Shown here: piece after piece, positions 4,953 through 24,817 of the stretch
Layout: each line of letters starts with the position of its first letter
Numbering within the stretch: position 1 is the first letter of the stretch
From: an uncultured delta proteobacterium
GTDB taxonomy: Bacteria > Desulfobacterota > Syntrophorhabdia > Syntrophorhabdales > Syntrophorhabdaceae
Length of the DNA stretch: 51,508 bases
Assembly (NCBI GenBank): GCA_903822335.1
Contig: CAIJOT010000150.1
Location: 1-51,508 of the forward strand
Direction: 5' to 3'
Notes under the pieces: generated by a model
The model's database searches: none
Seen by the model: only the letters and a program-made list of their open reading frames with translations
What the model was told of the DNA's origin: nothing
Position numbers and translations under genes: made by a program

Positions 4953-5028
4953 ATGAATCTTTTCACGTTAAAGTTTTCTACGGTACAAGAATCGCGCCAT
5001 ATCCCTTAAAAAGTATAGTTTTTATAAG

Positions 5029-5036
5029 CTACCGCC
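5029..5036 (-). promoter_or_regulatory. ops-like element (GGCGGTAG on the sense strand of the minus-strand operon)
   Basis: Plus strand reads CTACCGCC, so the sense strand reads GGCGGTAGCTTA. It lies in the 198-nt AT-rich leader between the GT39 stop and the first ORF of the leg-type operon. Confidence 0.3.
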
Positions 5037-5105
5037 ATTAGATAATCATATAACATCATAATATTATTATATAATTATACATATGTTTGAGTTGTGTCAG
5101 CATTA

Positions 5106-5134
5106 ATATTACACTAAATCACAAACTTTCTCAA
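5106..5134 (-). promoter_or_regulatory. Putative sigma70-type promoter for the nonulosonic acid operon (TTGAGA-17-TAATAT)
   Basis: Read on the minus strand: TTGAGA (5134-5129), a 17-nt spacer, then TAATAT (5111-5106), about 70 nt upstream of the ops-like motif. Confidence 0.3.
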
Positions 5135-5150
5135 TTACAAAACGGTAATA

Positions 5151-6557
5151 TCATCCGTCATTTAACCTGTATATTTTTACAAACTCGCTTTTATCTTTAA
5201 ACTCCACTACAAGTTTAAAACCTGTCAAGCAGCCATCTTGAAATAAAGGATTGTTGACCAACCTATCATCAAAGACAAGATATTTTGCACCGGTCTTTCT
5301 CGTAAACCCAGCCCATTGGGAACAATCCTTTACTTCTTTTAATGCAGATATATTTATATATTCACCTTTTGCATAAAAAGGCACAACAGGCAATCTTGAA
5401 ATTATCTTATTGCCCGGGTCGGTCTCTAACAGAAATAATCCTGCTTGCTTATGAAATGCCCTCCCCTTATTCTGCAGGGTTATGCCCTGAAAAATAGAAG
5501 CAACTATAATCACAGTAAATACTGTATAATAGAGCTGATTTTTATGCCTGTACCGTTCAAAGAATTCTTTCAATACATACATGCCTTCTATTGAAAAAAC
5601 CATTAATACCGGAATGAATTCCACCGAGTATCTTTTGGTTGAATGAGGGGCAAAAACAACCCTGGCAATAATATGAAGAACAACCAGCACGATTAACAAC
5701 ATTCTGTAAGATGGTTCAACCCTTTTAAACCCAAGAACCGCAAGTATAAAAAGAGGCGGAAAGATGGCCTCAAAGAAATTGTAAACAACAAAAGGGAACC
5801 TTCTTAAAAGCTGCAAAGAAGATTCAAAGGGATACTTGTAAGTATAGGCAACTATCTCATTGTTTACAAGGCTTTCAGCCACCCCTACCTTTTTCGTGAT
5901 CGTCCATAAACCTGTTTCAAGTTTCAAATAGTACACATAAGGAAAAGCAAACAAGGCAATACATGCAAGAAGAATGCATATATGGGAAAATCTTTTCTCT
6001 TTTACCAGCAAGAAGCAGAATGGCAGGGCGTATATAATGTACTCTGCCTTATTAAGATAGGTAAGGGCAAGAAACACACCGGATAGTCCGATACTTGTTT
6101 TGTCTTCTTCCTTCCAGCCTTTATAGAAGAAAAATACTGTAGCAGCAAAGAGACACGTTGTCATGGATTCGGAAAGCACCTGGACAGAATACCTTACAAG
6201 ATAGGGATGGATAGCTACAAAGAATGCTCCATAGAGCGCTTTTTTTTCTCCAAAATATTTTTTTAAAAAAAGAAATGTGAAATAAATGAGCAAAATCCCG
6301 AAAATAAATGAGACAATCCTTCCTGCAATTTCGAGATCTTTAACAAAAAAACTGAACCCACCGAGAAATACAGGATAAAGTGGATGTGAAATACCCTTGA
6401 GACCTTCAAAAATAGCGCCCTTTGCAAAGCTCCCTGCCATCTGGGCATAGCCAATCCCATCCAGTTCAATTGCAGAGGCTGTTATAAAGTCAAAAAGTCT
6501 GACCATACACCCAAGACAGATTATGGAAAAAAAAATTGTTTTTTCACTCTTTTGCAT
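5151..6557 (-). CDS. Polytopic membrane glycosyltransferase, GT39/ArnT-PMT-like (family 39/83 type)
   Basis: 468 aa with many hydrophobic helices, an N-terminal loop with ELDGIGYAQMA and a soluble C-terminal tail. Sits in a glycan-gene context. Confidence 0.6.
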   Translation of the reverse strand: MQKSEKTIFFSIICLGCMVRLFDFITASAIELDGIGYAQMAGSFAKGAIFEGLKGISHPLYPVFLGGFSFFVKDLEIAGRIVSFIFGILLIYFTFLFLKKYFGEKKALYGAFFVAIHPYLVRYSVQVLSESMTTCLFAATVFFFYKGWKEEDKTSIGLSGVFLALTYLNKAEYIIYALPFCFLLVKEKRFSHICILLACIALFAFPYVYYLKLETGLWTITKKVGVAESLVNNEIVAYTYKYPFESSLQLLRRFPFVVYNFFEAIFPPLFILAVLGFKRVEPSYRMLLIVLVVLHIIARVVFAPHSTKRYSVEFIPVLMVFSIEGMYVLKEFFERYRHKNQLYYTVFTVIIVASIFQGITLQNKGRAFHKQAGLFLLETDPGNKIISRLPVVPFYAKGEYINISALKEVKDCSQWAGFTRKTGAKYLVFDDRLVNNPLFQDGCLTGFKLVVEFKDKSEFVKIYRLNDG

Positions 6558-12242: not shown

Positions 12243-13839
12243 TCTGGAGCATCTCCTCTGCCCTTTGTAGTGTTTTTTCTGTTATTGTTGTGCCGCCTGA
12301 CATTCGTGCTATCTCAGCTACCCTCTCGCCCTCTGAGAGTTTTTTAATACCAGTTTTTGTAGCTTCCCGCTCAAAATATTTTTCTACGAGAAAGTGATGG
12401 TCACCGTATACTGCTATCTGGGGAAGATGGGTGATGCATATAACCTGATGTTTTTTCGCAAGGTCCTTCAGCCGTCTACCCACCATATCGGCAACCCTCC
12501 CACCAATACCTGCATCCACCTCATCAAAAATCAATGTCTTTTCTTCTTCGCCCCCAATAACCTTCTTAATTGCAAGCATTATTCTCGACAACTCCCCACC
12601 TGATGCGATCTTTCTCAAAGGTTTCAGAGGTTCTCCAGGGTTTGTACTAATCATGAACTCGATATCATCTCTGCCATCTTCATCAATACTGCCCTTATCT
12701 GCTATCTCAATCTCAAACTTCAATCCCTTCATGGAAAGAAAGCTGAGCTCATCAACGATTGCCTTCTCAATAGCCCCTGTTCCTTTTTTCCTCTTCATAG
12801 TCAGTCTATCTGCAAGCTTTCCCACTTCACTTTCGAGAGAGCTCTTCTTCTTCTCAAGTTCCCCTATATTTTCAGAAAGGGTTGTAAGATATGCAAGCCT
12901 TTCCTTTGCTGATGCTTCATACTCTTCAATATCCCCATAAGTCTTACCATATTTATTTTTAAGCTCATAAATTTTTGATAATCTTTCCTCGAGCATCTGT
13001 AGTTCATCGGGTTCGTATAACAAACCCTTTTCAATATCCTTTATCTCCATCAACACATCTTCCACATCAAAGGATATTGATTCTATCCTGTTTTTCAATT
13101 TATCAATAGCTTCAATATTGCTGAAGGACTTAAGCAAACCAGTAAACCTTTTCAGATTCACATGGACGGAATTTTCACCTTCATACAGGCTGTCTACCAC
13201 AACCCCAAGGCTACTCTTTATCTTCTCAGCATCTTTCAATATCTTCAGCCTCTCTTTTATAAGTTCCTCTTCACCCTCCTTTATGTTCTCCCTCTCAATT
13301 TCCTCCACCTGAAACTCTAACAGGGCAATTTCCTTGCCCCTCCCCTCTACCTCTTTCTTCTTCCTCTCCAACTCTCCTTCAACCTTCTTTAACATCCCTA
13401 CTTTTTCCCCAAGGAATTGTCTTTCTCCATCAAGGGAAAGAAGGCTATCAATAATCCCTGTATAACTTTCCTTATTGAGAAGATATTGAAATTCATTCTG
13501 GCCGTATATATTGATAAGCATATTCCCCGTCTCTTCTAATCTACTCAATGTCACAGGGTTATCATTCAGGAATGCCCTCGACCTGCCCGATATACCCATT
13601 ATCCTCCGTAACACAAACTCGTCAGCACTATAAAAAAAATGCCCAATGACTTCAGCCTGTTGCGCATTGCTCCTGATCATATCAGATGAAGTCTTCGCAT
13701 TCATCAGCGTTGAAAGGGCATTTATTATGATCGACTTGCCTGCTCCTGTTTCTCCTGTTATCACATTAAACCCTTCCCCAAACTCTACCTGCAGTTCATC
13801 TATTATCGCAAAACCTTTCACCTTAAGAAAGGTCAGCAT
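12220..13839 (-). CDS. recN: DNA repair protein RecN
   Basis: Walker A ITGETGAGKSIIINAL, a long coiled-coil middle, the signature ASGGELSRIMLAIK and Walker B LIFDEVDAGIGG. Confidence 0.9.
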   Translation of the reverse strand: MLTFLKVKGFAIIDELQVEFGEGFNVITGETGAGKSIIINALSTLMNAKTSSDMIRSNAQQAEVIGHFFYSADEFVLRRIMGISGRSRAFLNDNPVTLSRLEETGNMLINIYGQNEFQYLLNKESYTGIIDSLLSLDGERQFLGEKVGMLKKVEGELERKKKEVEGRGKEIALLEFQVEEIERENIKEGEEELIKERLKILKDAEKIKSSLGVVVDSLYEGENSVHVNLKRFTGLLKSFSNIEAIDKLKNRIESISFDVEDVLMEIKDIEKGLLYEPDELQMLEERLSKIYELKNKYGKTYGDIEEYEASAKERLAYLTTLSENIGELEKKKSSLESEVGKLADRLTMKRKKGTGAIEKAIVDELSFLSMKGLKFEIEIADKGSIDEDGRDDIEFMISTNPGEPLKPLRKIASGGELSRIMLAIKKVIGGEEEKTLIFDEVDAGIGGRVADMVGRRLKDLAKKHQVICITHLPQIAVYGDHHFLVEKYFEREATKTGIKKLSEGERVAEIARMSGGTTITEKTLQRAEEMLQNVEKSVH

Positions 13840-18019: not shown

Positions 18020-19830
18020 TAGGGTATAAAGGGAAAAACGAAGCATGCGATATATTGATAGAGGCTTTGAAGCGATTGGAGTACAGGGGTTATGATTCTG
18101 CCGGCATTGCATTGTGGAATGAAGGAAGAATAGCGATTGAGAGGAAAAAAGGTAAGGTAGATGATTTAAAAAAGATCGTGTACAACAACGACAGCTTTAA
18201 AGGGAAAATGGGGCTTGCCCACACAAGATGGGCAACCCACGGGACACCTTCAGAGCGGAACGCCCATCCTCATAAGGCTGATGATGTGGTAGTTGTCCAT
18301 AACGGTATTATCGAAAACTATATAGAATTAAAAACAAAACTGAAAGATGAAGGCCATAAATTCCTTTCCGATACAGACACGGAGGTTATTCCCCATCTCA
18401 TCACAAACCACTTGAGGAAGGGTATGAATTTCATAGATGCCGTCAGGGCAACCCTTAAGGAACTGAAAGGTTCTTATGCCCTTGGCATTATAAAGGAGAC
18501 AGAGAAGACTTTGATCGCCGCTAAAAAGGAAAGTCCGCTGATTGTTGGTGTGGGTGAGGGAGAATATTTCATCGCCAGCGATGTTCCTGCCATTATCAAC
18601 AGAACAAACAGGTTCATATTCCTTGAAGACAACGATGTAGCAATTTTTAAGGACGGAACATTACTCTTGATCAATGTGGACGGCAAAGAAGTGCAAAGAA
18701 AGGTTCACGAGGTTTATTGGACAGAGGCAATGGCAGAAAAGGGCGGTTATAAACATTTCATGCTGAAAGAGATCTTTGAACAACCAAGGGCAATCTCTGA
18801 CACATTGATAGGAAGGATCAAAGAAGAAAAAGGTCTGGTTGAGTTTGAAGAGTTAAAACTACCCGATATAAGCAAGATGAAAAAGATCTGGATGATAGCA
18901 TGCGGGACATCTTACCATGCCTGTATAATAGGAAAGCACATGTTCGAGGCCAATCTCAGAATACCTGTGGAAACGGATATTGCCTCTGAATTCCGTTACA
19001 GAGACCCCATACTGGGCAAGAACGATATGTTGATACTCGTTTCCCAGTCAGGAGAGACAGCCGATACCATCGCTGCCATGAAAGAGGGGAAAAAGAGAGG
19101 TGCTTACACTTTGTCAGTATGCAACGTGCTTGGAAGCACCCTGGCCAGAGAAGCAGATGGGGTCATTTTCACCCATGCAGGCCCGGAGATAGGCGTGGCA
19201 TCCACAAAAGCCTTTACAACCCAGATTTCTGTCCTCTTCATGCTCATGCTCCACATAGGAAAAAAACTCGGGAAAATGCAGAGTGATGAGATAAGGAATA
19301 GCATTGGTGAGATAAAAAAGATACCCCACAAGATTCAAACAATCCTTGATATGTCAAACGTCATAGAGGAGCTTGCGAGGAAGTATATGGGATTTAAAGA
19401 TTTTCTCTACCTCGGAAGGGGCATCAACTACCCTACTGTCCAGGAAGGGGCACTGAAATTGAAAGAGATTTCCTATATCCACGCAGAAGCATACGCAGCC
19501 GGGGAAATGAAGCATGGGCCAATTGCCCTGATAGATGAGAATTTACCTGTAGTATTTGTGTCTCCCAATGACCATACCTACAAGAAGACATGTGGAAACA
19601 TGGAGGAGGTTATCACAAGGAGAGGCAGGATCCTGCTATTCACTGACGACAACTCTCATGAGATGGCAAGCAGGGTGGACAACCTTTTTATATTGCCGAA
19701 AACAATCTATGAACTCCAACCGATACTCTCTGTTGTTCCTCTCCAGCTACTCGCCTATTATATTGCAAATTTCTTAGGAACAGACGTTGACCAGCCTCGC
19801 AACCTTGCAAAAAGCGTAACGGTGGAGTAA
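18007..19830 (+). CDS. glmS: Glutamine--fructose-6-phosphate aminotransferase
   Basis: GTG start followed by CGIVGY (N-terminal nucleophile Cys), two SIS domains and the C-terminal DQPRNLAKSVTVE. Confidence 0.95.
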   Translation: MCGIVGYKGKNEACDILIEALKRLEYRGYDSAGIALWNEGRIAIERKKGKVDDLKKIVYNNDSFKGKMGLAHTRWATHGTPSERNAHPHKADDVVVVHNGIIENYIELKTKLKDEGHKFLSDTDTEVIPHLITNHLRKGMNFIDAVRATLKELKGSYALGIIKETEKTLIAAKKESPLIVGVGEGEYFIASDVPAIINRTNRFIFLEDNDVAIFKDGTLLLINVDGKEVQRKVHEVYWTEAMAEKGGYKHFMLKEIFEQPRAISDTLIGRIKEEKGLVEFEELKLPDISKMKKIWMIACGTSYHACIIGKHMFEANLRIPVETDIASEFRYRDPILGKNDMLILVSQSGETADTIAAMKEGKKRGAYTLSVCNVLGSTLAREADGVIFTHAGPEIGVASTKAFTTQISVLFMLMLHIGKKLGKMQSDEIRNSIGEIKKIPHKIQTILDMSNVIEELARKYMGFKDFLYLGRGINYPTVQEGALKLKEISYIHAEAYAAGEMKHGPIALIDENLPVVFVSPNDHTYKKTCGNMEEVITRRGRILLFTDDNSHEMASRVDNLFILPKTIYELQPILSVVPLQLLAYYIANFLGTDVDQPRNLAKSVTVE

Positions 19831-20021
19831 CTTCGAGCTACCTGAACAAACATTTCTCTTTCCATTTCCCAACAGTTCTTGTATTTATTTAAGTGTTGGG
19901 CATACATGACCCTTATATAACATTTCCTACTCGTTTTCTAAATACATCTAAAAACCATATAATAATTATCCTGAAGTCAATATTTTATTCTCATAGAGAT
20001 ATAAATAAAGAAAATATTTAT

Positions 20022-20051
20022 TTGACATTTACAATAATATAATGATATATT
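20022..20051 (+). promoter_or_regulatory. Putative sigma70-type promoter of the GHKL cassette (TTGACA-18-TATATT)
   Basis: TTGACA at 20022-20027 and TATATT at 20046-20051, about 30 nt upstream of the ORF1 ATG. An AGGGG SD lies at 20072-20076. Confidence 0.5.
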
Positions 20052-20081: not shown

Positions 20082-20300
20082 ATGGAACAGGAAAGCAGAC
20101 ATGAAAGGTTCAAAAGGATAGCTGCAAAGAGAACCAATGAGATATTAGAGAAAATCAGGATACTTGGAAATTGTTCGAATAAGAGTTCTTATGAATACAC
20201 AGAGGAGGAAATTAATAAGATTTTTTCGGAGATTGACAAACAGTTGAAACTCACAAAGGCAAAATTTTTAGCAGGAAAGAGAGAAAGATTTAAATTGTGA
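20082..20300 (+). CDS. Small (72 aa) Lys/Glu-rich helical protein of unknown function, first gene of the GHKL cassette
   Basis: Good SD (AGGGG, 5-nt spacer). The sequence RFKRIAAKRTNEILEKIRILGN...EEEINKIFSEIDKQLKLTKAKF looks like two amphipathic helices. No family recognised. Confidence 0.55.
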   Translation: MEQESRHERFKRIAAKRTNEILEKIRILGNCSNKSSYEYTEEEINKIFSEIDKQLKLTKAKFLAGKRERFKL

Positions 20301-20328
20301 AAATAGATAGAAAAAAGGGGGTCAATAT

Positions 20329-22107
20329 ATGCCAATTAAAATAGGTATATCACCAAAAATAATTCTTTCTATTGCAACGCTTTATAATGATGTCAATAGA
20401 ATTTTCATGGAGTATATTGATAATTCCCTTGATAGTGCTGAAGATTTATACTCGGTAGAAGAAAATTCATACAAACGCCCTGTAGAGATTGCTCTGATTA
20501 TACAAGGCAGAGATTTCAGGGGTGGTCAGGTTCAAATTATTGATAACTGTATAGGTATAACAAATTTTTCAAAAGTTGTTCAAAGTATAGGATTTTCAGA
20601 CAAAAAAGTAAAAGCTCAACCCTGGATAAATGGTCAATTTGGTTACGGAATTTATTCTTTTTTGGCTTGTTGTGAAAAACTCGAAATAACATCAAAACTG
20701 CAAAAGGAGGATGCTCTTTACATACCAATTAATAGAGATCAATTTGAAGCAGAAAGGCAGGAAGATGTTGTTTTCCCTGATCCTAAGAAAGTGAGAAAAT
20801 TTGATTTTGAGTCTGGTACAAAAGTATGCCTTTCAAATTTTGATAAGACTTGTTGGCGACAAGTTGATATTGTTGAACTCAAAAGTGAAATTGAAAAACA
20901 TTTTGAGTTGTTGTTGGCAAGAAAAAACTTGTCTATAAAATTGATAAAAAAAGATGATTCTATTTTCAACCAAGATGAAGAAATAATATGCAAGTCCTTT
21001 GATTATGGACAATATGATGGTGAGGTTTGGGAGGATTATGCAGAAACATTATCATTTTCATGGGGTAAAAAAAATCCAGTAAGGACAACAATTAAACCAA
21101 GAAAACCTATACACGTGTATATAAAAATTACCACAGGGAAGGAGATAAACAAGAGGCCAGTATTTATTTCTAAAGGTAGAAGAATTGGTGAGATAAAAGA
21201 TATAAAATCATTCAAATCGTCACACAAAAGTGATTTATGGGATCATCCGAATGTAACAGGATATGTTGACTTGTCAGATTTTTTAGACCCAACAATAGCA
21301 CGGAATGATTTTAGAAACAATAATAATTCCAAAGCATTATACAATTATTTGATTGAGATAGAACCATTGATTTTGGATGAAATAAAAAATGTGAACAAAA
21401 AAGCAGAAGAAAGACATTATCAAGAACTCGAAGATAAGTTAAACGAAGCGTTATCAAAATTAGCACGCATAGACTCCATGATGTATCGAACAGACTATAT
21501 ATCAGGAGACAAAGTAAATTTGGAAAAAAATGGAATAGGCAAACACATTGATGAAGAATCTGGTGGTAAAGATCATGGCAAAGATAGAGATGGATCTCGT
21601 TCAGGTAAAGGTGTTGGGGACAGTCTTGGTGATGGTAAAGGAATTGATAATGGTTTCGGAGGATTGCCTGGTGGTGATAAAGGTGGCGACAATGCATTAA
21701 ACAAAGAGGCTTCTAATCCATTCGAAGATACCGGTTTTAAAGGTCAGGAAAAAAGAAAAAGTGGTTTTAATATTAGAATTGTAGACAGAGAGCCCGATAT
21801 TGATAATGAGACAAAAAAACCAATTCGTTCGAGTTTAATTGGAAATGAAATAACGATATTCAAACAACACACTGATTTTCAAGATCGAGTTGATGTTTCA
21901 AGGAAAAGAGAGGCAAAGATAACACAACGCTTAATAACTTATTTAGCAGGAGAAATTACAGTCCATTACAAAGACAAATTTCATAACAAAAATGGTCAGC
22001 CAGAATATAATAAAAAACTTTTTATCGATCTCGTAAGCTTCGTTTATGAATTTGAAAAGATGTTAAAAGATTTATCAGGTAAAAATTTGGCTGATTTGAA
22101 TAGTTAG
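20329..22107 (+). CDS. GHKL-superfamily (MORC/paraMORC, HATPase_c_3-like) ATPase with a Gly/Asp/Lys-rich linker and an unassigned C-terminal domain
   Basis: Bergerat motifs occur in order: EYIDNSLDS (aa 28-36), DNCIGIT (72-78), GQFGYGIYS (102-110), GTKV (163-166). A GGGGG SD sits 7 nt upstream of the ATG. Confidence 0.75.
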   Translation: MPIKIGISPKIILSIATLYNDVNRIFMEYIDNSLDSAEDLYSVEENSYKRPVEIALIIQGRDFRGGQVQIIDNCIGITNFSKVVQSIGFSDKKVKAQPWINGQFGYGIYSFLACCEKLEITSKLQKEDALYIPINRDQFEAERQEDVVFPDPKKVRKFDFESGTKVCLSNFDKTCWRQVDIVELKSEIEKHFELLLARKNLSIKLIKKDDSIFNQDEEIICKSFDYGQYDGEVWEDYAETLSFSWGKKNPVRTTIKPRKPIHVYIKITTGKEINKRPVFISKGRRIGEIKDIKSFKSSHKSDLWDHPNVTGYVDLSDFLDPTIARNDFRNNNNSKALYNYLIEIEPLILDEIKNVNKKAEERHYQELEDKLNEALSKLARIDSMMYRTDYISGDKVNLEKNGIGKHIDEESGGKDHGKDRDGSRSGKGVGDSLGDGKGIDNGFGGLPGGDKGGDNALNKEASNPFEDTGFKGQEKRKSGFNIRIVDREPDIDNETKKPIRSSLIGNEITIFKQHTDFQDRVDVSRKREAKITQRLITYLAGEITVHYKDKFHNKNGQPEYNKKLFIDLVSFVYEFEKMLKDLSGKNLADLNS

Positions 22108-22109
22108 CA

Positions 22110-22991
22110 ATGAATATCGGTGTTTTAATAGAACAGATTACCCCTTTATACAACAACTACAAAAGAAACAAGAAAGATATTTCTGCTGTTAAGGCACTTG
22201 AAATTATGTGGGATATCGGTGAGATATTAAGCAGTTATATAAAAAAAGAAAACATAGCCCCACACACTTTATTTTGGAGTGTATACGGAAAAAGTGAAGG
22301 GATAAAGAATATTCCACAAAAAAGTTATATAACAAGAGAGTTTCAAAACCGTTGTTATAGAATCAGAAAGATATTCAAAGACAGGAAAGATATAGATAAT
22401 ATTTTTCACAACTTAAAAAGTTTTACAGCGTTCAGAGAATCAATGCCTTTTTTTGATAATCATCGATATAAATTGAAAGGCAAAGAGCAAAACAACTTGG
22501 TTAAATTGCTTAATAGCGATGTGCCTCTAATTGAAATAATGAAAAAAATAAAAGAATTACAAACAAAAAAGATTGGTATTAAAAACCCTCGTAACCAAAG
22601 ATTACATGAAGTCGAAAAAGAAAAAGAAATTTTTATAAATTTTTATAATTTTATATATAGAATTATAAAGGCAGGAAATTATCAGCTTCTATTAAGTGAA
22701 TTAAAAGGCATAGATATTAAATATATTGAAGTATTATCGAAGAATACTGGTGCATTAACACAAGAAGGGCTGAAAATGTTTAAGTTAGAAATACCAAACA
22801 ATCTTTCATCGCCTTGGGTTGAATATAGTGATGTGGTTAAAAAATTAATTAATCAGAAAGACCCAAAATTAAGAAGGAGATTTAGGAGGTTAATTCCAGT
22901 TGAAAGAATATCAAATCTGGCTAATATGCTCTATGCATTGTTGTCAGAAGAAAATTATAACAGTATGGCAAGAAAAATGAGCGTGCCTTGA
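22110..22991 (+). CDS. Uncharacterised 293-aa helical protein, third gene of the GHKL cassette; contains an RNQRLH (HEPN-like Rx4H) motif
   Basis: The start is 2 nt after the ORF2 stop, suggesting coupling. Lys/Asn-rich. The N-terminal ~110 aa loosely resemble DUF1016/YhcG N-terminal helical regions. RNQRLH at aa 161-166. Confidence 0.55.
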   Translation: MNIGVLIEQITPLYNNYKRNKKDISAVKALEIMWDIGEILSSYIKKENIAPHTLFWSVYGKSEGIKNIPQKSYITREFQNRCYRIRKIFKDRKDIDNIFHNLKSFTAFRESMPFFDNHRYKLKGKEQNNLVKLLNSDVPLIEIMKKIKELQTKKIGIKNPRNQRLHEVEKEKEIFINFYNFIYRIIKAGNYQLLLSELKGIDIKYIEVLSKNTGALTQEGLKMFKLEIPNNLSSPWVEYSDVVKKLINQKDPKLRRRFRRLIPVERISNLANMLYALLSEENYNSMARKMSVP

Positions 22992-23071: not shown

Positions 23072-24115
23072 ATGTTCAAGCCTAATTTCAAATATACCCA
23101 TAAAATAGTGAATAATCTAACACAGATTTCTGTTGCAAGGGAGTTGATTCTCAACTCTCCTTTGATCCCTAAATGGGAAGTAACGCTACGCCGTGAGGCA
23201 ATTATACGGAGCGCTCATTGTTCCACCAGCATCGAAGGCAACAGGCTATCCCTTGAACAGGTAAGTGATTTAGCCCATGGCCGTGAAGTGATGGCAACCC
23301 GAAAAGACAGGCAAGAAGTCCTGAATTATTTGGGCGTGTTGGAAAACACTGAAAAATTAGCTCCCGGGAAGATAATTACAGAAAATACCATATTAAATAT
23401 ACACAAATTATTAACACAGGAAACACTTGAGAGTCCTTCTGATTGTGGAGTATATCGCAATCGTTATGTAGTAGTAGCAAACAGGCTGACAGGCGAAATC
23501 ACCTTTAGACCTCCCTCTAACGAATATGTCCCTTCTCTGATAAGAGAACTGACGGAATGGTTAAATTCCTCTGAGGCAAATGAACTTGACCCTGTACTTG
23601 AGGCAGGAATATCCCACTATGAGTTTGTAAGAATCCATCCGTTTGTTGACGGTAATGGTAGAACCGCCCGGGTGTTGGCAAGTTTAATACTTTATCTGAG
23701 AGGTTTTGATATTAAGCAGTTTTTCTGTCTTGATGATTACTATGATACAGACAGACAATCATATTACAGGGCCTTACAAAGGGTCAATCAAGAGACACTG
23801 GATTTGACGGTATGGCTTGAATATTTTGTTGAAGGAGTTAATTTAAGTATAACTGCGGTGAAGGAGAGGGTAATAAGGCTCAGTAGCGAGAGATTAAGAA
23901 AAACAAGAAAAGGACAGATTGCCTTAACAGAAAAACAGATGAGGATTATCGAATTTATAAACAAGAATGGAAAAATAACAAACAAAGATATAAGAGAAAT
24001 GTTTAGATATTCATCTCAAGCCGCACATAAAGAGATTTTAAAGCTGGTTAAATTAGATGTGATTAATCCTGTTGGAAAGGGAAGAGCTTTCTCATACCAG
24101 ATAAAATCAAGTTGA
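23072..24115 (+). CDS. Fic/DOC-family protein (Fido domain) with N-terminal inhibitory motif and C-terminal winged-helix domain
   Basis: HPFVDGNGRTAR (aa 189-200) is the canonical Fic motif. STSIEG (aa 51-56) fits the (S/T)xxxE(G/N) inhibitory helix. The C-terminal EKQMRIIEFINKNGKITNKDIREMF looks like a wHTH. Confidence 0.9.
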   Translation: MFKPNFKYTHKIVNNLTQISVARELILNSPLIPKWEVTLRREAIIRSAHCSTSIEGNRLSLEQVSDLAHGREVMATRKDRQEVLNYLGVLENTEKLAPGKIITENTILNIHKLLTQETLESPSDCGVYRNRYVVVANRLTGEITFRPPSNEYVPSLIRELTEWLNSSEANELDPVLEAGISHYEFVRIHPFVDGNGRTARVLASLILYLRGFDIKQFFCLDDYYDTDRQSYYRALQRVNQETLDLTVWLEYFVEGVNLSITAVKERVIRLSSERLRKTRKGQIALTEKQMRIIEFINKNGKITNKDIREMFRYSSQAAHKEILKLVKLDVINPVGKGRAFSYQIKSS

Positions 24116-24190: not shown

Positions 24191-24817
24191 TCATCTCATC
24201 TTCTTCAGTATCTGATTCGTCTCGTCCAGGTCAAATACGTTGGGGTCAAATTCGCCACCGAGCCATTCCATTGTGTCTTCATATTCGGGGTGTTTCGGGT
24301 TCTTTATAATCTCCAGCATGTCATAATAGCTGTATATGCCGCCGCAGTCTTCCGGGGGACAAGCGCTCTCGCCCTCCAGACAGACTGGACGCCCCGAAAA
24401 CCTCTCGTGATTGTCCATTATCTTCTCAACCTTTATCTTATGCTCCCACCCATCGCCAAAATCGTAGACATACACGAATGAACTCTTTGCTACAGGAGCA
24501 ATTTCATAAAGACGGACCCTGTTTTCGTTCTTCGACCTGTCCATCTCCATTTCAGGATCAGGGTCAGCGTAGGAAACATCTTTTACGATAAATTCATGGA
24601 GGTGAGAATCCGTCCAGTCCATAACGTTCTGGATAATTCGGTGCAGTTTTCCGAGGGTTGTATTGCCTGACACGAGGACCTGCCGCCATATCTCCGGATT
24701 GCTATCCATCAGGGATATCTTTAACTGATAGACCTTCTCTTTATCGTTGTTTGCTTTGGTGTGCAACGGCTTTTCGCCTTCTTTTTTCTCCCATTTTCCC
24801 TGCACTACTTTTCCCAT
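24191..24817 (-). CDS. Plasmid pRiA4b ORF-3-family protein
   Basis: YQLKISLMDSNPEIWRQVLVSGNTTLGKLHRIIQNVMDWTDSHLHEF and YVYDFGDGWEHKI are characteristic of this family. Confidence 0.75.
   Translation of the reverse strand: MGKVVQGKWEKKEGEKPLHTKANNDKEKVYQLKISLMDSNPEIWRQVLVSGNTTLGKLHRIIQNVMDWTDSHLHEFIVKDVSYADPDPEMEMDRSKNENRVRLYEIAPVAKSSFVYVYDFGDGWEHKIKVEKIMDNHERFSGRPVCLEGESACPPEDCGGIYSYYDMLEIIKNPKHPEYEDTMEWLGGEFDPNVFDLDETNQILKKMR

Follow-up and report, generated by a model that had tools for sequence, protein, structure and literature searches.

The 51,508-nt contig CAIJOT010000150.1 (assembly GCA_903822335.1) of an uncultured delta proteobacterium of the Syntrophorhabdaceae, analysed over its whole length and referred to here as the window, carries between glmS and uvrC a cassette of three genes on the same strand: ORF1, ORF2, which encodes a predicted GHKL ATPase, and ORF3 (Table 1). 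The intergenic gaps are 28 nt (ORF1-ORF2) and 2 nt (ORF2-ORF3), G-run Shine-Dalgarno (SD) sites precede ORF1 (cAGGGGtattt-ATG) and ORF2 (aaGGGGGtcaatat-ATG), and the promoter upstream of ORF1 is the top promoter-like site of the region. No terminator-like sites were found between positions 19700 and 24300, and so none lies between ORF3 and the Fic gene that follows. A previous sequence-only reading had described the same AT-rich arrangement, with these genes, gaps, SD sites and promoter, and the ORF coordinates, promoter match and base composition bear it out. It had also remarked on the lack of nuclease, methylase, helicase and transposase genes, and no such domain was detectable in ORF1 to ORF3.

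The G+C content of the cassette (0.306, against a window median of 0.407) is the lowest of any 2.9-kb stretch in the 51.5 kb. G+C content at third codon positions (GC3) is 0.23 in ORF2 and 0.26 in ORF3, compared with 0.49 in glmS, 0.46 in uvrC and an intermediate 0.35 in the Fic gene. All contigs with this exact ORF2 share one context, in which ORF1 to ORF3, the Fic gene and a PRiA4_ORF3 gene stand between glmU-glmS and uvrC-uvrB. A search of the island borders found no att-like repeats, tRNA genes or Rfam families. The low G+C content, the insertion between glmS and uvrC and a patchy distribution over phyla at 50 to 67% identity indicate that the cassette was acquired horizontally.

Table 1. 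Features of the cassette and its surroundings in the window
Feature	Position	Strand	Description
Putative operator	19994-20007	+	Degenerate palindrome copy TAGAGATATAAATA; 3 mismatches to TATTTATATAAATA
Promoter	20022-20051	+	TTGACA-18-TATATT; sigma-70-type, extended -10 TG; 11/12 matches
ORF1	20082-20300	+	72 aa; ORF call
ORF2	20329-22107	+	592 aa; ORF call
ORF2 residues 1-230	20329-21018	+	GHKL (Bergerat-fold) ATP-binding domain, motifs I-IV intact
ORF2 residues 231-381	21019-21471	+	Basic (pI 9.7) S5-like transducer; KGRR at K282-R285; 50-residue helix at 332-381
ORF2 residues 386-470	21484-21738	+	Acidic Gly/Asp-rich region (25% Gly), family-variable; 408-438 disordered in model
ORF2 residues 471-592	21739-22107	+	Conserved basic (pI 9.4) alpha/beta C-terminal domain
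ORF3	22110-22991	+	293 aa; ORF call
Fic-wHTH gene	23072-24115	+	SoFic-like; 80 nt 3' of ORF3; Pfam, PADLOC
PRiA4_ORF3-domain gene	24191-24817	-	Between Fic and uvrC; Pfam 1.3e-67

ORF2 contains, in order, the four motifs of the GHKL superfamily (ExxxNxxD, DxGxG, GxxGxG and G-T) as E28/N32/D35, D72-NCIG76, G102-QFGYG107 and G163-T164, at the residues and coordinates where the earlier reading had placed them. In an alignment of 68 homologues, E28, N32, D35, D72, G102 and G107 are invariant, and G76, G105, G163 and T164 are conserved in at least 90%. Pfam recognises HATPase_c_3 alone (residues 22 to 156, 30.7 bits; cut-off, 25). An AlphaFold2 model built with 68 input sequences (pLDDT 78.9), in which the ATP-lid region (residues 87 to 106) is disordered, matched Hsp90 (E 2.5e-14, ~410 to 460 columns), MORC3 (5ix1; E 5.5e-12, TM(target) 0.53) and the N-terminal domain of the MutL-family protein PMS1 (3h4l; E 1e-11, TM(target) 0.57) in Foldseek. 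These alignments, at just 12 to 17% identity, cover ~380 to 460 columns, i.e., the first ~400 residues of ORF2, which on the model places the protein among the GHKL-plus-transducer ATPases of the MutL/Hsp90/MORC/paraMORC class.

The KGRR motif of the middle domain (K282, G, R284 and R285) is invariant or nearly so in the homologue alignment. In the class with GHKL and S5 domains, a conserved basic residue of the transducer (K307 in MutL and R380 in Hsp90) touches the gamma-phosphate of ATP. The label MORC, which the sequence-only reading had given to ORF2, is too specific, because the S5-domain motif GhXhhpXXRhl that defines the MORC family (Iyer, Abhiman and Aravind, 2008; PMC2292703) was absent from ORF2 in a regular-expression search. 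The C-terminal domain, for which a profile search found no relative among PDB sequences, has invariant residues R500, S501, H514, E542, H546, Y547 and K548, with D549 conserved in at least 90%. Two ExxxH motifs, considered in relation to paraMORC2, are present, E187-H191 (E187 in at least 90%, H191 invariant) and E542-H546 (both invariant), neither of them clearly inside the predicted transducer. The HYKD sequence of the C-terminal domain was rejected as a PLD-type HKD motif, because its residues are not spaced as in that motif and fall within a predicted helix.

ORF3 is strongly basic (pI 9.8), with invariant arginine and aromatic positions and the conserved motifs KSYITREFQNRCYRIR, KNPRTQRL and RRRFRRLIP. 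Its predicted structure is all-alpha and confident (pLDDT 89.5), and Foldseek returned nothing for it in PDB (best E 1.1) or BFVD (best E 0.39). In addition, the ORF3 profile matched no PDB sequence, and searches of Pfam, NCBIfam and PADLOC gave no match, those of PHROG giving weak matches to families of unknown function. Among 1.84 billion representative proteins, a profile search retrieved 169 clusters, nearly all of them stand-alone proteins of ~290 aa and with no informative fusion. ORF3 is apparently an orphan family whose modelled fold is new, and most clades have it as the obligate partner of ORF2. Assignment to HEPN (Rx4H at R161-H166) was rejected because the histidine is not conserved, and assignment to the PD-(D/E)xK nucleases because the fold is all-alpha and the acidic triad is absent.

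Hundreds of full-length ORF2 homologues, all unnamed, are found at 50 to 67% identity. A scan of one genome per species gave 69 loci, every one from a metagenome-assembled genome (MAG), and the ORF2-ORF3 module occurs in more than 10 phyla (Nitrospirota, Patescibacteria, Bacteroidota, Ignavibacteriota, Omnitrophota, Actinomycetota, Acidobacteriota and others). At the 43 loci that could be assessed, i.e., those with a full-length ATPase gene and sufficient downstream sequence, the next downstream gene is an ORF3 homologue in 29, and in 28 of these adjacent pairs the gap is about -29 to +14 nt. An ORF1 homologue lies upstream at 17 of 51 loci by hidden Markov model (HMM) search and at a few more by tblastn. 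What the earlier reading had taken as a unit of three genes is thus a conserved ORF2-ORF3 pair with a separately distributed leader, rather than an indivisible triad.

The best structural and sequence matches of ORF2, Hsp90/HtpG and the N-terminal domains of MutL-family proteins, raise the question of whether it could be a housekeeping chaperone or repair ATPase, a paralogue of Hsp90/HtpG or MutL with unrelated neighbours. The 12 to 17% identity to those proteins, the patchy distribution over phyla at 50 to 67%, a GC3 half that of the flanking genes, the conserved partner ORF3, the restriction-modification (R-M) and recombinase neighbours and the unique C-terminal domain all argue against this, and the comparative data effectively refute it. 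Stand-alone housekeeping homologues, which the sequence-only reading had named as evidence against itself, are not what was found: the ATPase gene is followed immediately by ORF3 in 29 of 43 loci and is often preceded by ORF1.

Several clades join the core to R-M genes. In L009 to L014, ORF2-ORF3 (preceded by ORF1 in L011 to L014, with no ORF1 detected in L009 or L010) is followed, with gaps of a few nucleotides, by Mod (N6_N4) and Res (ResIII plus RE_endonuc), so that a complete Type III R-M system is joined to the 3' side of ORF3; in L017, Mod-Res lies upstream of ORF2-ORF3, and the window has no such adjacent pair. L059 to L063 contain a Dam-class methyltransferase, together in L059 to L062 with a protein resembling the C-terminal domain (CTD) of RpoA and sigma region 4, which stands between ORF1 and ORF2 in L059. 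A Type ISP enzyme and an AAA_13 ATPase flank L007, and a helicase-nuclease flanks L016. When neighbours of 150 aa or more were counted, the nearest 104 included 12 DNA methyltransferases as well as 8 recombinases of the tyrosine and 4 of the serine type; ResIII, AbiEii-like AAA_21 and BrxC/D proteins and ordinary housekeeping genes are also among them.

Each of the tight operons L009 to L014 and L017 and the Dam-linked L059 to L063 is a stable inherited clade, as might be expected if ORF2-ORF3 were an accessory motor or looping module of R-M systems, a function proposed for MORC/paraMORC proteins by Iyer et al. (PMC2292703); in the window, it would then be a remnant or work with an R-M system encoded elsewhere. 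However, a methyltransferase occurs within a few genes at just 11 of 53 loci, and the linkage is clade-specific in the ATPase tree: the clade of the window (L001 to L004, L025 and L034) is consistently without one, many other loci have none adjacent, and methyltransferase motifs of the N6/N4, Dam or C5 type were found in no ORF of the 51.5-kb window. Furthermore, methyltransferases of different classes were joined to the core in independent events, a pattern more in keeping with autonomous modules that fused. An accessory role in R-M is therefore unlikely, and from these comparisons we read ORF2-ORF3 as an autonomous core that appears to have been joined to R-M modules several times.

ORF1 is basic (pI 9.7), has an invariant LGNCSN turn and, judged from its sequence, is apparently a two-helix protein, either a putative autoregulator or a putative small subunit. 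It had no match in Pfam, NCBIfam or PADLOC and a weak one to PHROG family phrog_35258 (E 3.7e-4), of unknown function, in agreement with the earlier reading, which had recognised no family for ORF1 or ORF3. Family scans found no helix-turn-helix (HTH) or ribbon-helix-helix (RHH) signature in ORF1 and no HTH family in 35 members of its family, and a profile search found no relatives among PDB sequences. More than 700 homologues exist, the best 120 at 88 to 99% identity, and at the loci with near-identical ORF1 the ORF2 and ORF3 proteins are merely ~60% identical to those of the window. Over its 72 codons, ORF1 differs from its counterparts in L001, L002 and L070 by 37 to 43 synonymous and 3 to 5 nonsynonymous changes, and this excess of synonymous differences (~40 versus 3 to 5) indicates extreme purifying selection. 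Recent recombination as the source of the 96% identity was rejected, as synonymous sites are near saturation. ORF1-like proteins of ~37% identity are also encoded by Synechococcus T4-like cyanophages (MT162466.1, L172 4001-4273, and 11 other records), which are lytic; the genes stand alone among small hypothetical ORFs, with no GHKL gene nearby, and their products could be phage mimics or inhibitors of ORF1-dependent systems.

The region upstream of ORF1 is also conserved. Among 77 distinct ORF1 upstream regions analysed with shuffled controls, a 14-bp palindrome, TATTTATATAAATA, occurs with at most two mismatches in 34 (16 of them perfect), compared with ~5% of shuffles, and its spacing to the -35 box (TTGACA) is fixed at 14 nt in 23 of 26 cases. 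Identity is 0.90 in the palindrome versus 0.35 in the adjacent 30 nt immediately upstream. A related second site, TTTATAAATA, lies directly 3' of the -35 box, in the promoter spacer, and the combined 16-mer TTGACATTTATAAATA (-35 box plus second site) is found with at most two mismatches at 24 of the 77 loci versus 1 of 1,540 shuffles. At the family level, ORF1 genes thus have a putative palindromic operator at a fixed position relative to the promoter, and operator and promoter accompany ORF1 regardless of cargo. The copy in the window is in the canonical register, 14 nt 5' of the -35 box and 88 nt 5' of the ATG, and the promoter spacer starts with TTTACAATAA, akin to the conserved TTTATAAATA.

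Loci of the candidate phyla radiation (CPR) type, in which ORF1 is 50 to 60% identical, have other palindromes overlapping the -35 box (e.g., L066, L014 and L013), which is consistent with a coevolving operator specificity. The palindrome of L066 has 23-nt arms, lies ~55 nt upstream of ORF1 and is centred on a TTGACA-like box; long palindromes on such a box are also present in L012, L013, L014 and L059, with a sequence unlike that of the Nitrospirota-type operator. Since ORF1 is the sole constant gene behind the promoter, we infer that it binds the palindromic sites.

Across loci, ORF1 behaves as a separate module, distributed independently of the ORF2-ORF3 core, and homologues of at least 85% identity lead quite different operons. 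The arrays comprise ORF1-p211-G754; ORF1-p228 followed by a G453-like ATPase, with or without an RpoA-like protein or methyltransferase; ORF1-ORF6N-methyltransferase-p228-G796-Fic; ORF1-methyltransferase-G453 and more genes; ORF1 and then an 836-aa or 780-aa protein; ORF1 followed by toxin-antitoxin (TA) pairs; and ORF1 followed directly by Fic. In L161 (366-5066), the cargo is of non-GHKL type, a DUF4007 protein (306 aa) and a 1157-aa P-loop (GTGKS) protein. Bergerat motifs are present in G754 and, as assigned by eye or regular expression, in G796, G453 and the large proteins of L141/L167, all mutually very divergent; G754 is below the threshold of Pfam HATPase_c_3 (17.3 bits; cut-off, 25), and the ORF2 and G754 families are collinear over ~320 columns (hhalign E 6.6e-4). 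No homology was detectable between ORF3 and the p211 and p228 partners.

At least six GHKL-ATPase cargo types, including the PADLOC candidate system PDC-M33, follow ORF1. In 38 nonredundant ORF1-led loci with at least 2.5 kb of downstream sequence, the cargo includes a GHKL ATPase in 25, Fic in 9 and a methyltransferase in 7, and ORF1 is often translationally coupled to the next gene by 4-nt overlaps. A protein of ~450 to 680 aa with RNA polymerase alpha-CTD-like and sigma-70 region 4-like domains (L059 4601-5959, L100, L101 and L133) occurs in some ORF1-led GHKL arrays and hints at a link to the transcription machinery.

R-M controller (C) proteins have an Xre-type HTH and palindromic operators at their own promoter. 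Like these and other regulators heading defence operons, ORF1 is a small first gene with palindromic operators next to or overlapping its promoter, in a module common to varied cargos. Unlike C proteins, ORF1 has no detectable HTH, and it is much more conserved than its cargo. The absence of an HTH/RHH signature, a conservation well above that usual for regulators, the frequent 4-nt overlaps and the association with at least six very divergent GHKL families would also suit a stoichiometric subunit or adaptor of GHKL complexes, acting in dimerisation or lid locking like Hsp90 co-chaperones, with another factor binding the palindrome. Such a role is possible but on balance unlikely: ORF1 also stands directly before Fic (L135), TA pairs, methyltransferases and the DUF4007/P-loop pair with no GHKL gene nearby, many ORF2-ORF3 loci are without it, its operator and promoter travel with it whatever the cargo, and clades with divergent ORF1 have different palindromes.

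The window Fic protein matches PADLOC SoFic (E 9.9e-58) over residues 29 to 342, as a full-length SoFic, and Pfam Fic (1.5e-21) and HTH_24; an internal SxxxEG inhibitory motif read from the translation makes it class II. A SoFic-like gene recurs in L085 (12485-13524), behind a different ORF1-led cassette. It is there in two pieces, 12485-12775 (N-terminal, 82% identical to that of the window) and 12856-13524 (C-terminal, 70%), which reflects either a frameshift or pseudogene or an assembly error. An unrelated class II Fic protein of ~250 aa ends ten arrays (L098, L112, L113, L120, L135 to L137, L145, L148 and L158), its gene starting 24 nt after ORF1 in L135. ORF1 itself was rejected as a class I Fic antitoxin, as it has no [ST]xxxE[GN] motif and both Fic types have their own inhibitory motif.

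Fic was seen with ORF2-ORF3 solely within the ORF1 clade of the window and therefore appears, from this distribution, to be tied to the ORF1 module or island type and not to the ATPase core. Because Fic genes repeatedly lie 3' of ORF1-led arrays, the window gene is probably an associated gene of the cassette and not incidental, and a variable cargo slot may lie between ORF1 and Fic. The PRiA4_ORF3 gene is unusually GC-rich (0.467; GC3, 0.57), unlike cassette and flanks alike, and the island at glmS-uvrC is therefore probably composite. Other low-GC kilobase bins of the window are 1001-2000 (0.345) and 5001-6000 (0.347).

ORF1 relatives of 46 to 49% identity connect the window to PDC-M33. They occur on the temperate Clostridium innocuum phage NatCom_9291, next to an integrase gene, and on an IMG/VR contig, where the neighbour is a serine recombinase gene, and in both the next genes match PDC-M33A, -B and -C (E 5e-205, 6e-98 and 1e-193 for the NatCom_9291 proteins, which are 34 to 38% identical to those of the IMG/VR locus). 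PDC-M33 shares the layout of the window, i.e., an ORF1-family leader, a protein of ~600 to 640 aa with GHKL motifs (present in M33A, ~630 aa) and a ~290-aa protein (M33B, ~290 aa; M33C is ~250 to 350 aa), and, like the core family, it occupies accessory positions close to integrases or recombinases. Nevertheless, no homology is detectable between ORF2 and M33A (hhalign E 0.13) or between ORF3 and M33B (E 0.41), M33B is an acidic protein, unlike the strongly basic ORF3, and the third component, M33C, is absent in the window. The window proteins matched none of the PDC-M33 models in PADLOC, and the shared part is the ORF1-type leader alone. A search of a literature library found no mention of PDC-M33 and no name for the triad of the window.

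Mobile elements also appear to carry part of the ORF2 family. Loci at which the ATPase gene lacks ORF3 belong mostly to a single Ignavibacteria clade (L031, L032, L041, L045, L048 to L050 and L055), in which an excisionase-sized gene (~100 aa) and then a tyrosine integrase gene lie downstream and an unannotated gene of ~225 to 260 aa lies upstream, suggesting that this clade is carried at the ends of integrative elements. With the neighbouring recombinases counted above (8 tyrosine and 4 serine), the integrase and serine recombinase beside ORF1-PDC-M33, the lone ORF1-like genes of lytic cyanophages and the TA pairs and Fic genes after ORF1, this context would fit a cassette that serves a mobile element, through addiction or maintenance, superinfection exclusion or as counter-defence cargo beside integrases. 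We consider that quite improbable. The window and many other copies lie in chromosomal islands without a recombinase, att repeats or tRNA, and the ORF2 family accounts for 2 loci in 2.9 million viral contigs and has no member in 72,556 plasmids or 50,697 phage genomes. The integrase context does not distinguish this reading from one of host defence, because integrase-proximal sites are also the classic place for prophage-borne host-defence genes.

GHKL ATPases in R-M operons were described computationally by Iyer et al. (PMC2292703), who proposed GHKL+S5 ATPases as DNA-looping components of R-M systems. Like the paraMORC and prokaryotic MORC proteins, ORF2 combines an N-terminal GHKL domain with intact ATP motifs and an S5-type transducer, and its family is sporadic and laterally mobile, with a family-specific C-terminal extension; several ORF2 clades also share with them operonic Type III Res (ResIII plus restriction endonuclease [RE]) and N6/N4 or Dam methyltransferases. 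In contrast, the C-terminal RE-fold nuclease of paraMORC3, the TIR domain of paraMORC4 and the HxH of paraMORC5 are all missing from ORF2: Pfam and PADLOC gave no match to the paraMORC3/Shedu type I-D RE fold (DUF4263, E-D-ExK), Pfam gave none to TIR, and HxH occurs nowhere in ORF2. Furthermore, paraMORC systems partner a helicase or nuclease, whereas the constant partner of ORF2 is the orphan helical ORF3; most ORF2 loci, including the window, are without R-M genes, unlike the described paraMORC operons; and an ORF1 leader with an operator is not part of the paraMORC description.

Shedu type I-D (VcSduA, which is paraMORC3; PMC12137116) is a GHKL ATPase with a clamp-like middle domain, as ORF2 is predicted to be. 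GHKL-fused Shedu is a validated anti-phage system, for which the motif I glutamate is needed (PMC12137116). It differs in being a single gene with a C-terminal DUF4263 PD-(D/E)xK nuclease in the same polypeptide, whereas ORF2 has no nuclease domain and a separate partner gene. The two-component-like HEF_HK/paraMORC family (PMC8011034) was rejected as a counterpart, as its architecture is different. A PADLOC scan of ORF1 to ORF3 returned 0 families at E ≤ 1. The earlier proposal of an undescribed system thus stands in that no PADLOC model matches ORF1 to ORF3, but the class was known (PMC2292703) and a sister branch is PDC-M33.

We read the locus, with a probability of roughly 55%, as a horizontally acquired conflict cassette, most likely directed against phages or mobile DNA, that consists of two separable modules; within this reading, the analysis shows the gene structure, folds, conservation, co-occurrence, cis-element and neighbourhood counts, whereas the defence role, the clamping of DNA, the binding of the operator by ORF1 and the role of ORF3 are what we infer. 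The first module would be the promoter-operator and ORF1, which would bind TATTTATATAAATA and the related spacer site and control expression of whichever cargo sits downstream, as R-M controller proteins do. The second would be the cargo, ORF2 and ORF3. By analogy with MutL, Hsp90, MORC and the proposal for GHKL proteins in R-M, ORF2 would dimerise upon ATP binding, and its basic middle and C-terminal domains would clamp or loop DNA, with ORF3 as a nucleic-acid-binding specificity or effector partner. As no nuclease domain is recognisable, the output may be non-nucleolytic, with foreign DNA trapped, compacted or blocked, or may depend on an unrecognised active site, either in ORF3 or in the C-terminal domain of ORF2.

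The basic charge of ORF1, ORF3 and the middle and C-terminal domains of ORF2 is counted in favour of the conflict cassette, and several observations weigh against it. Family, structure and profile searches found no nuclease, TIR or other effector domain. No methyltransferase is present in the window or its closest clade, so that discrimination between self and non-self is unexplained. ORF1 lacks a recognisable DNA-binding fold in family and PDB sequence searches, and the window palindrome, with three mismatches, is by itself not above chance. About half to two-thirds of ORF2-ORF3 loci are without ORF1, which is thus dispensable for the core. The hosts of ORF2/ORF3 are all uncultured MAGs. The proximity to defence genes that the sequence-only reading had expected is seen for methyltransferases, Type III Res, recombinases and Abi/BREX-type ATPases, but this "enrichment" consists of raw counts, with no formal comparison with a genomic background.

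On this balance, the earlier interpretation is partly supported, and the locus probably serves defence or conflict and falls in the paraMORC/R-M-associated GHKL class. The cassette probably belongs to a large, mostly uncatalogued group, anti-phage or restriction-linked, in many uncultured phyla. A more far-reaching view, which is speculative and which we hold to be doubtful, is that ORF1 and its operator mark a large, unrecognised supra-family of bacterial immune loci, where one very highly conserved regulator or adaptor would drive interchangeable GHKL cargos of at least six families (PDC-M33 being the sole catalogued one) and in which the ORF2-ORF3 branch would silence foreign DNA without a nuclease, by ATP-driven clamping or compaction, as a prokaryotic counterpart and possible antecedent of eukaryotic MORC transposon silencing.

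The occurrence of GHKL/paraMORC ATPases in R-M and defence contexts was already known, and one sister branch is listed as a PADLOC candidate. We found no description of the ORF2-ORF3 pair, the fold of ORF3, the conserved ORF1 with its operator or the recurrence of ORF1 as leader of many GHKL cassettes, including PDC-M33. To our knowledge, almost none of the GHKL/paraMORC ATPases have been studied since the 2008 prediction, and the validated examples all have an obvious nuclease. The ORF2-ORF3 loci define a widespread ATPase-partner pair with no recognisable effector, and, if the pair is protective, its mechanism would be informative, whether non-nucleolytic trapping or a new catalytic fold. 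Because at least six GHKL cassettes that are otherwise unrelated, PDC-M33 among them, share the ORF1 leader with methyltransferases, Fic and TA genes, ORF1 and its operator could be used to search poorly sampled phyla, e.g., Nitrospirota and CPR, for new conflict systems. The PDC-M33 relatives on the temperate phage of Clostridium innocuum offer an experimentally tractable entry point, and the common ORF1 leader suggests a shared regulatory logic for toxic cargo.

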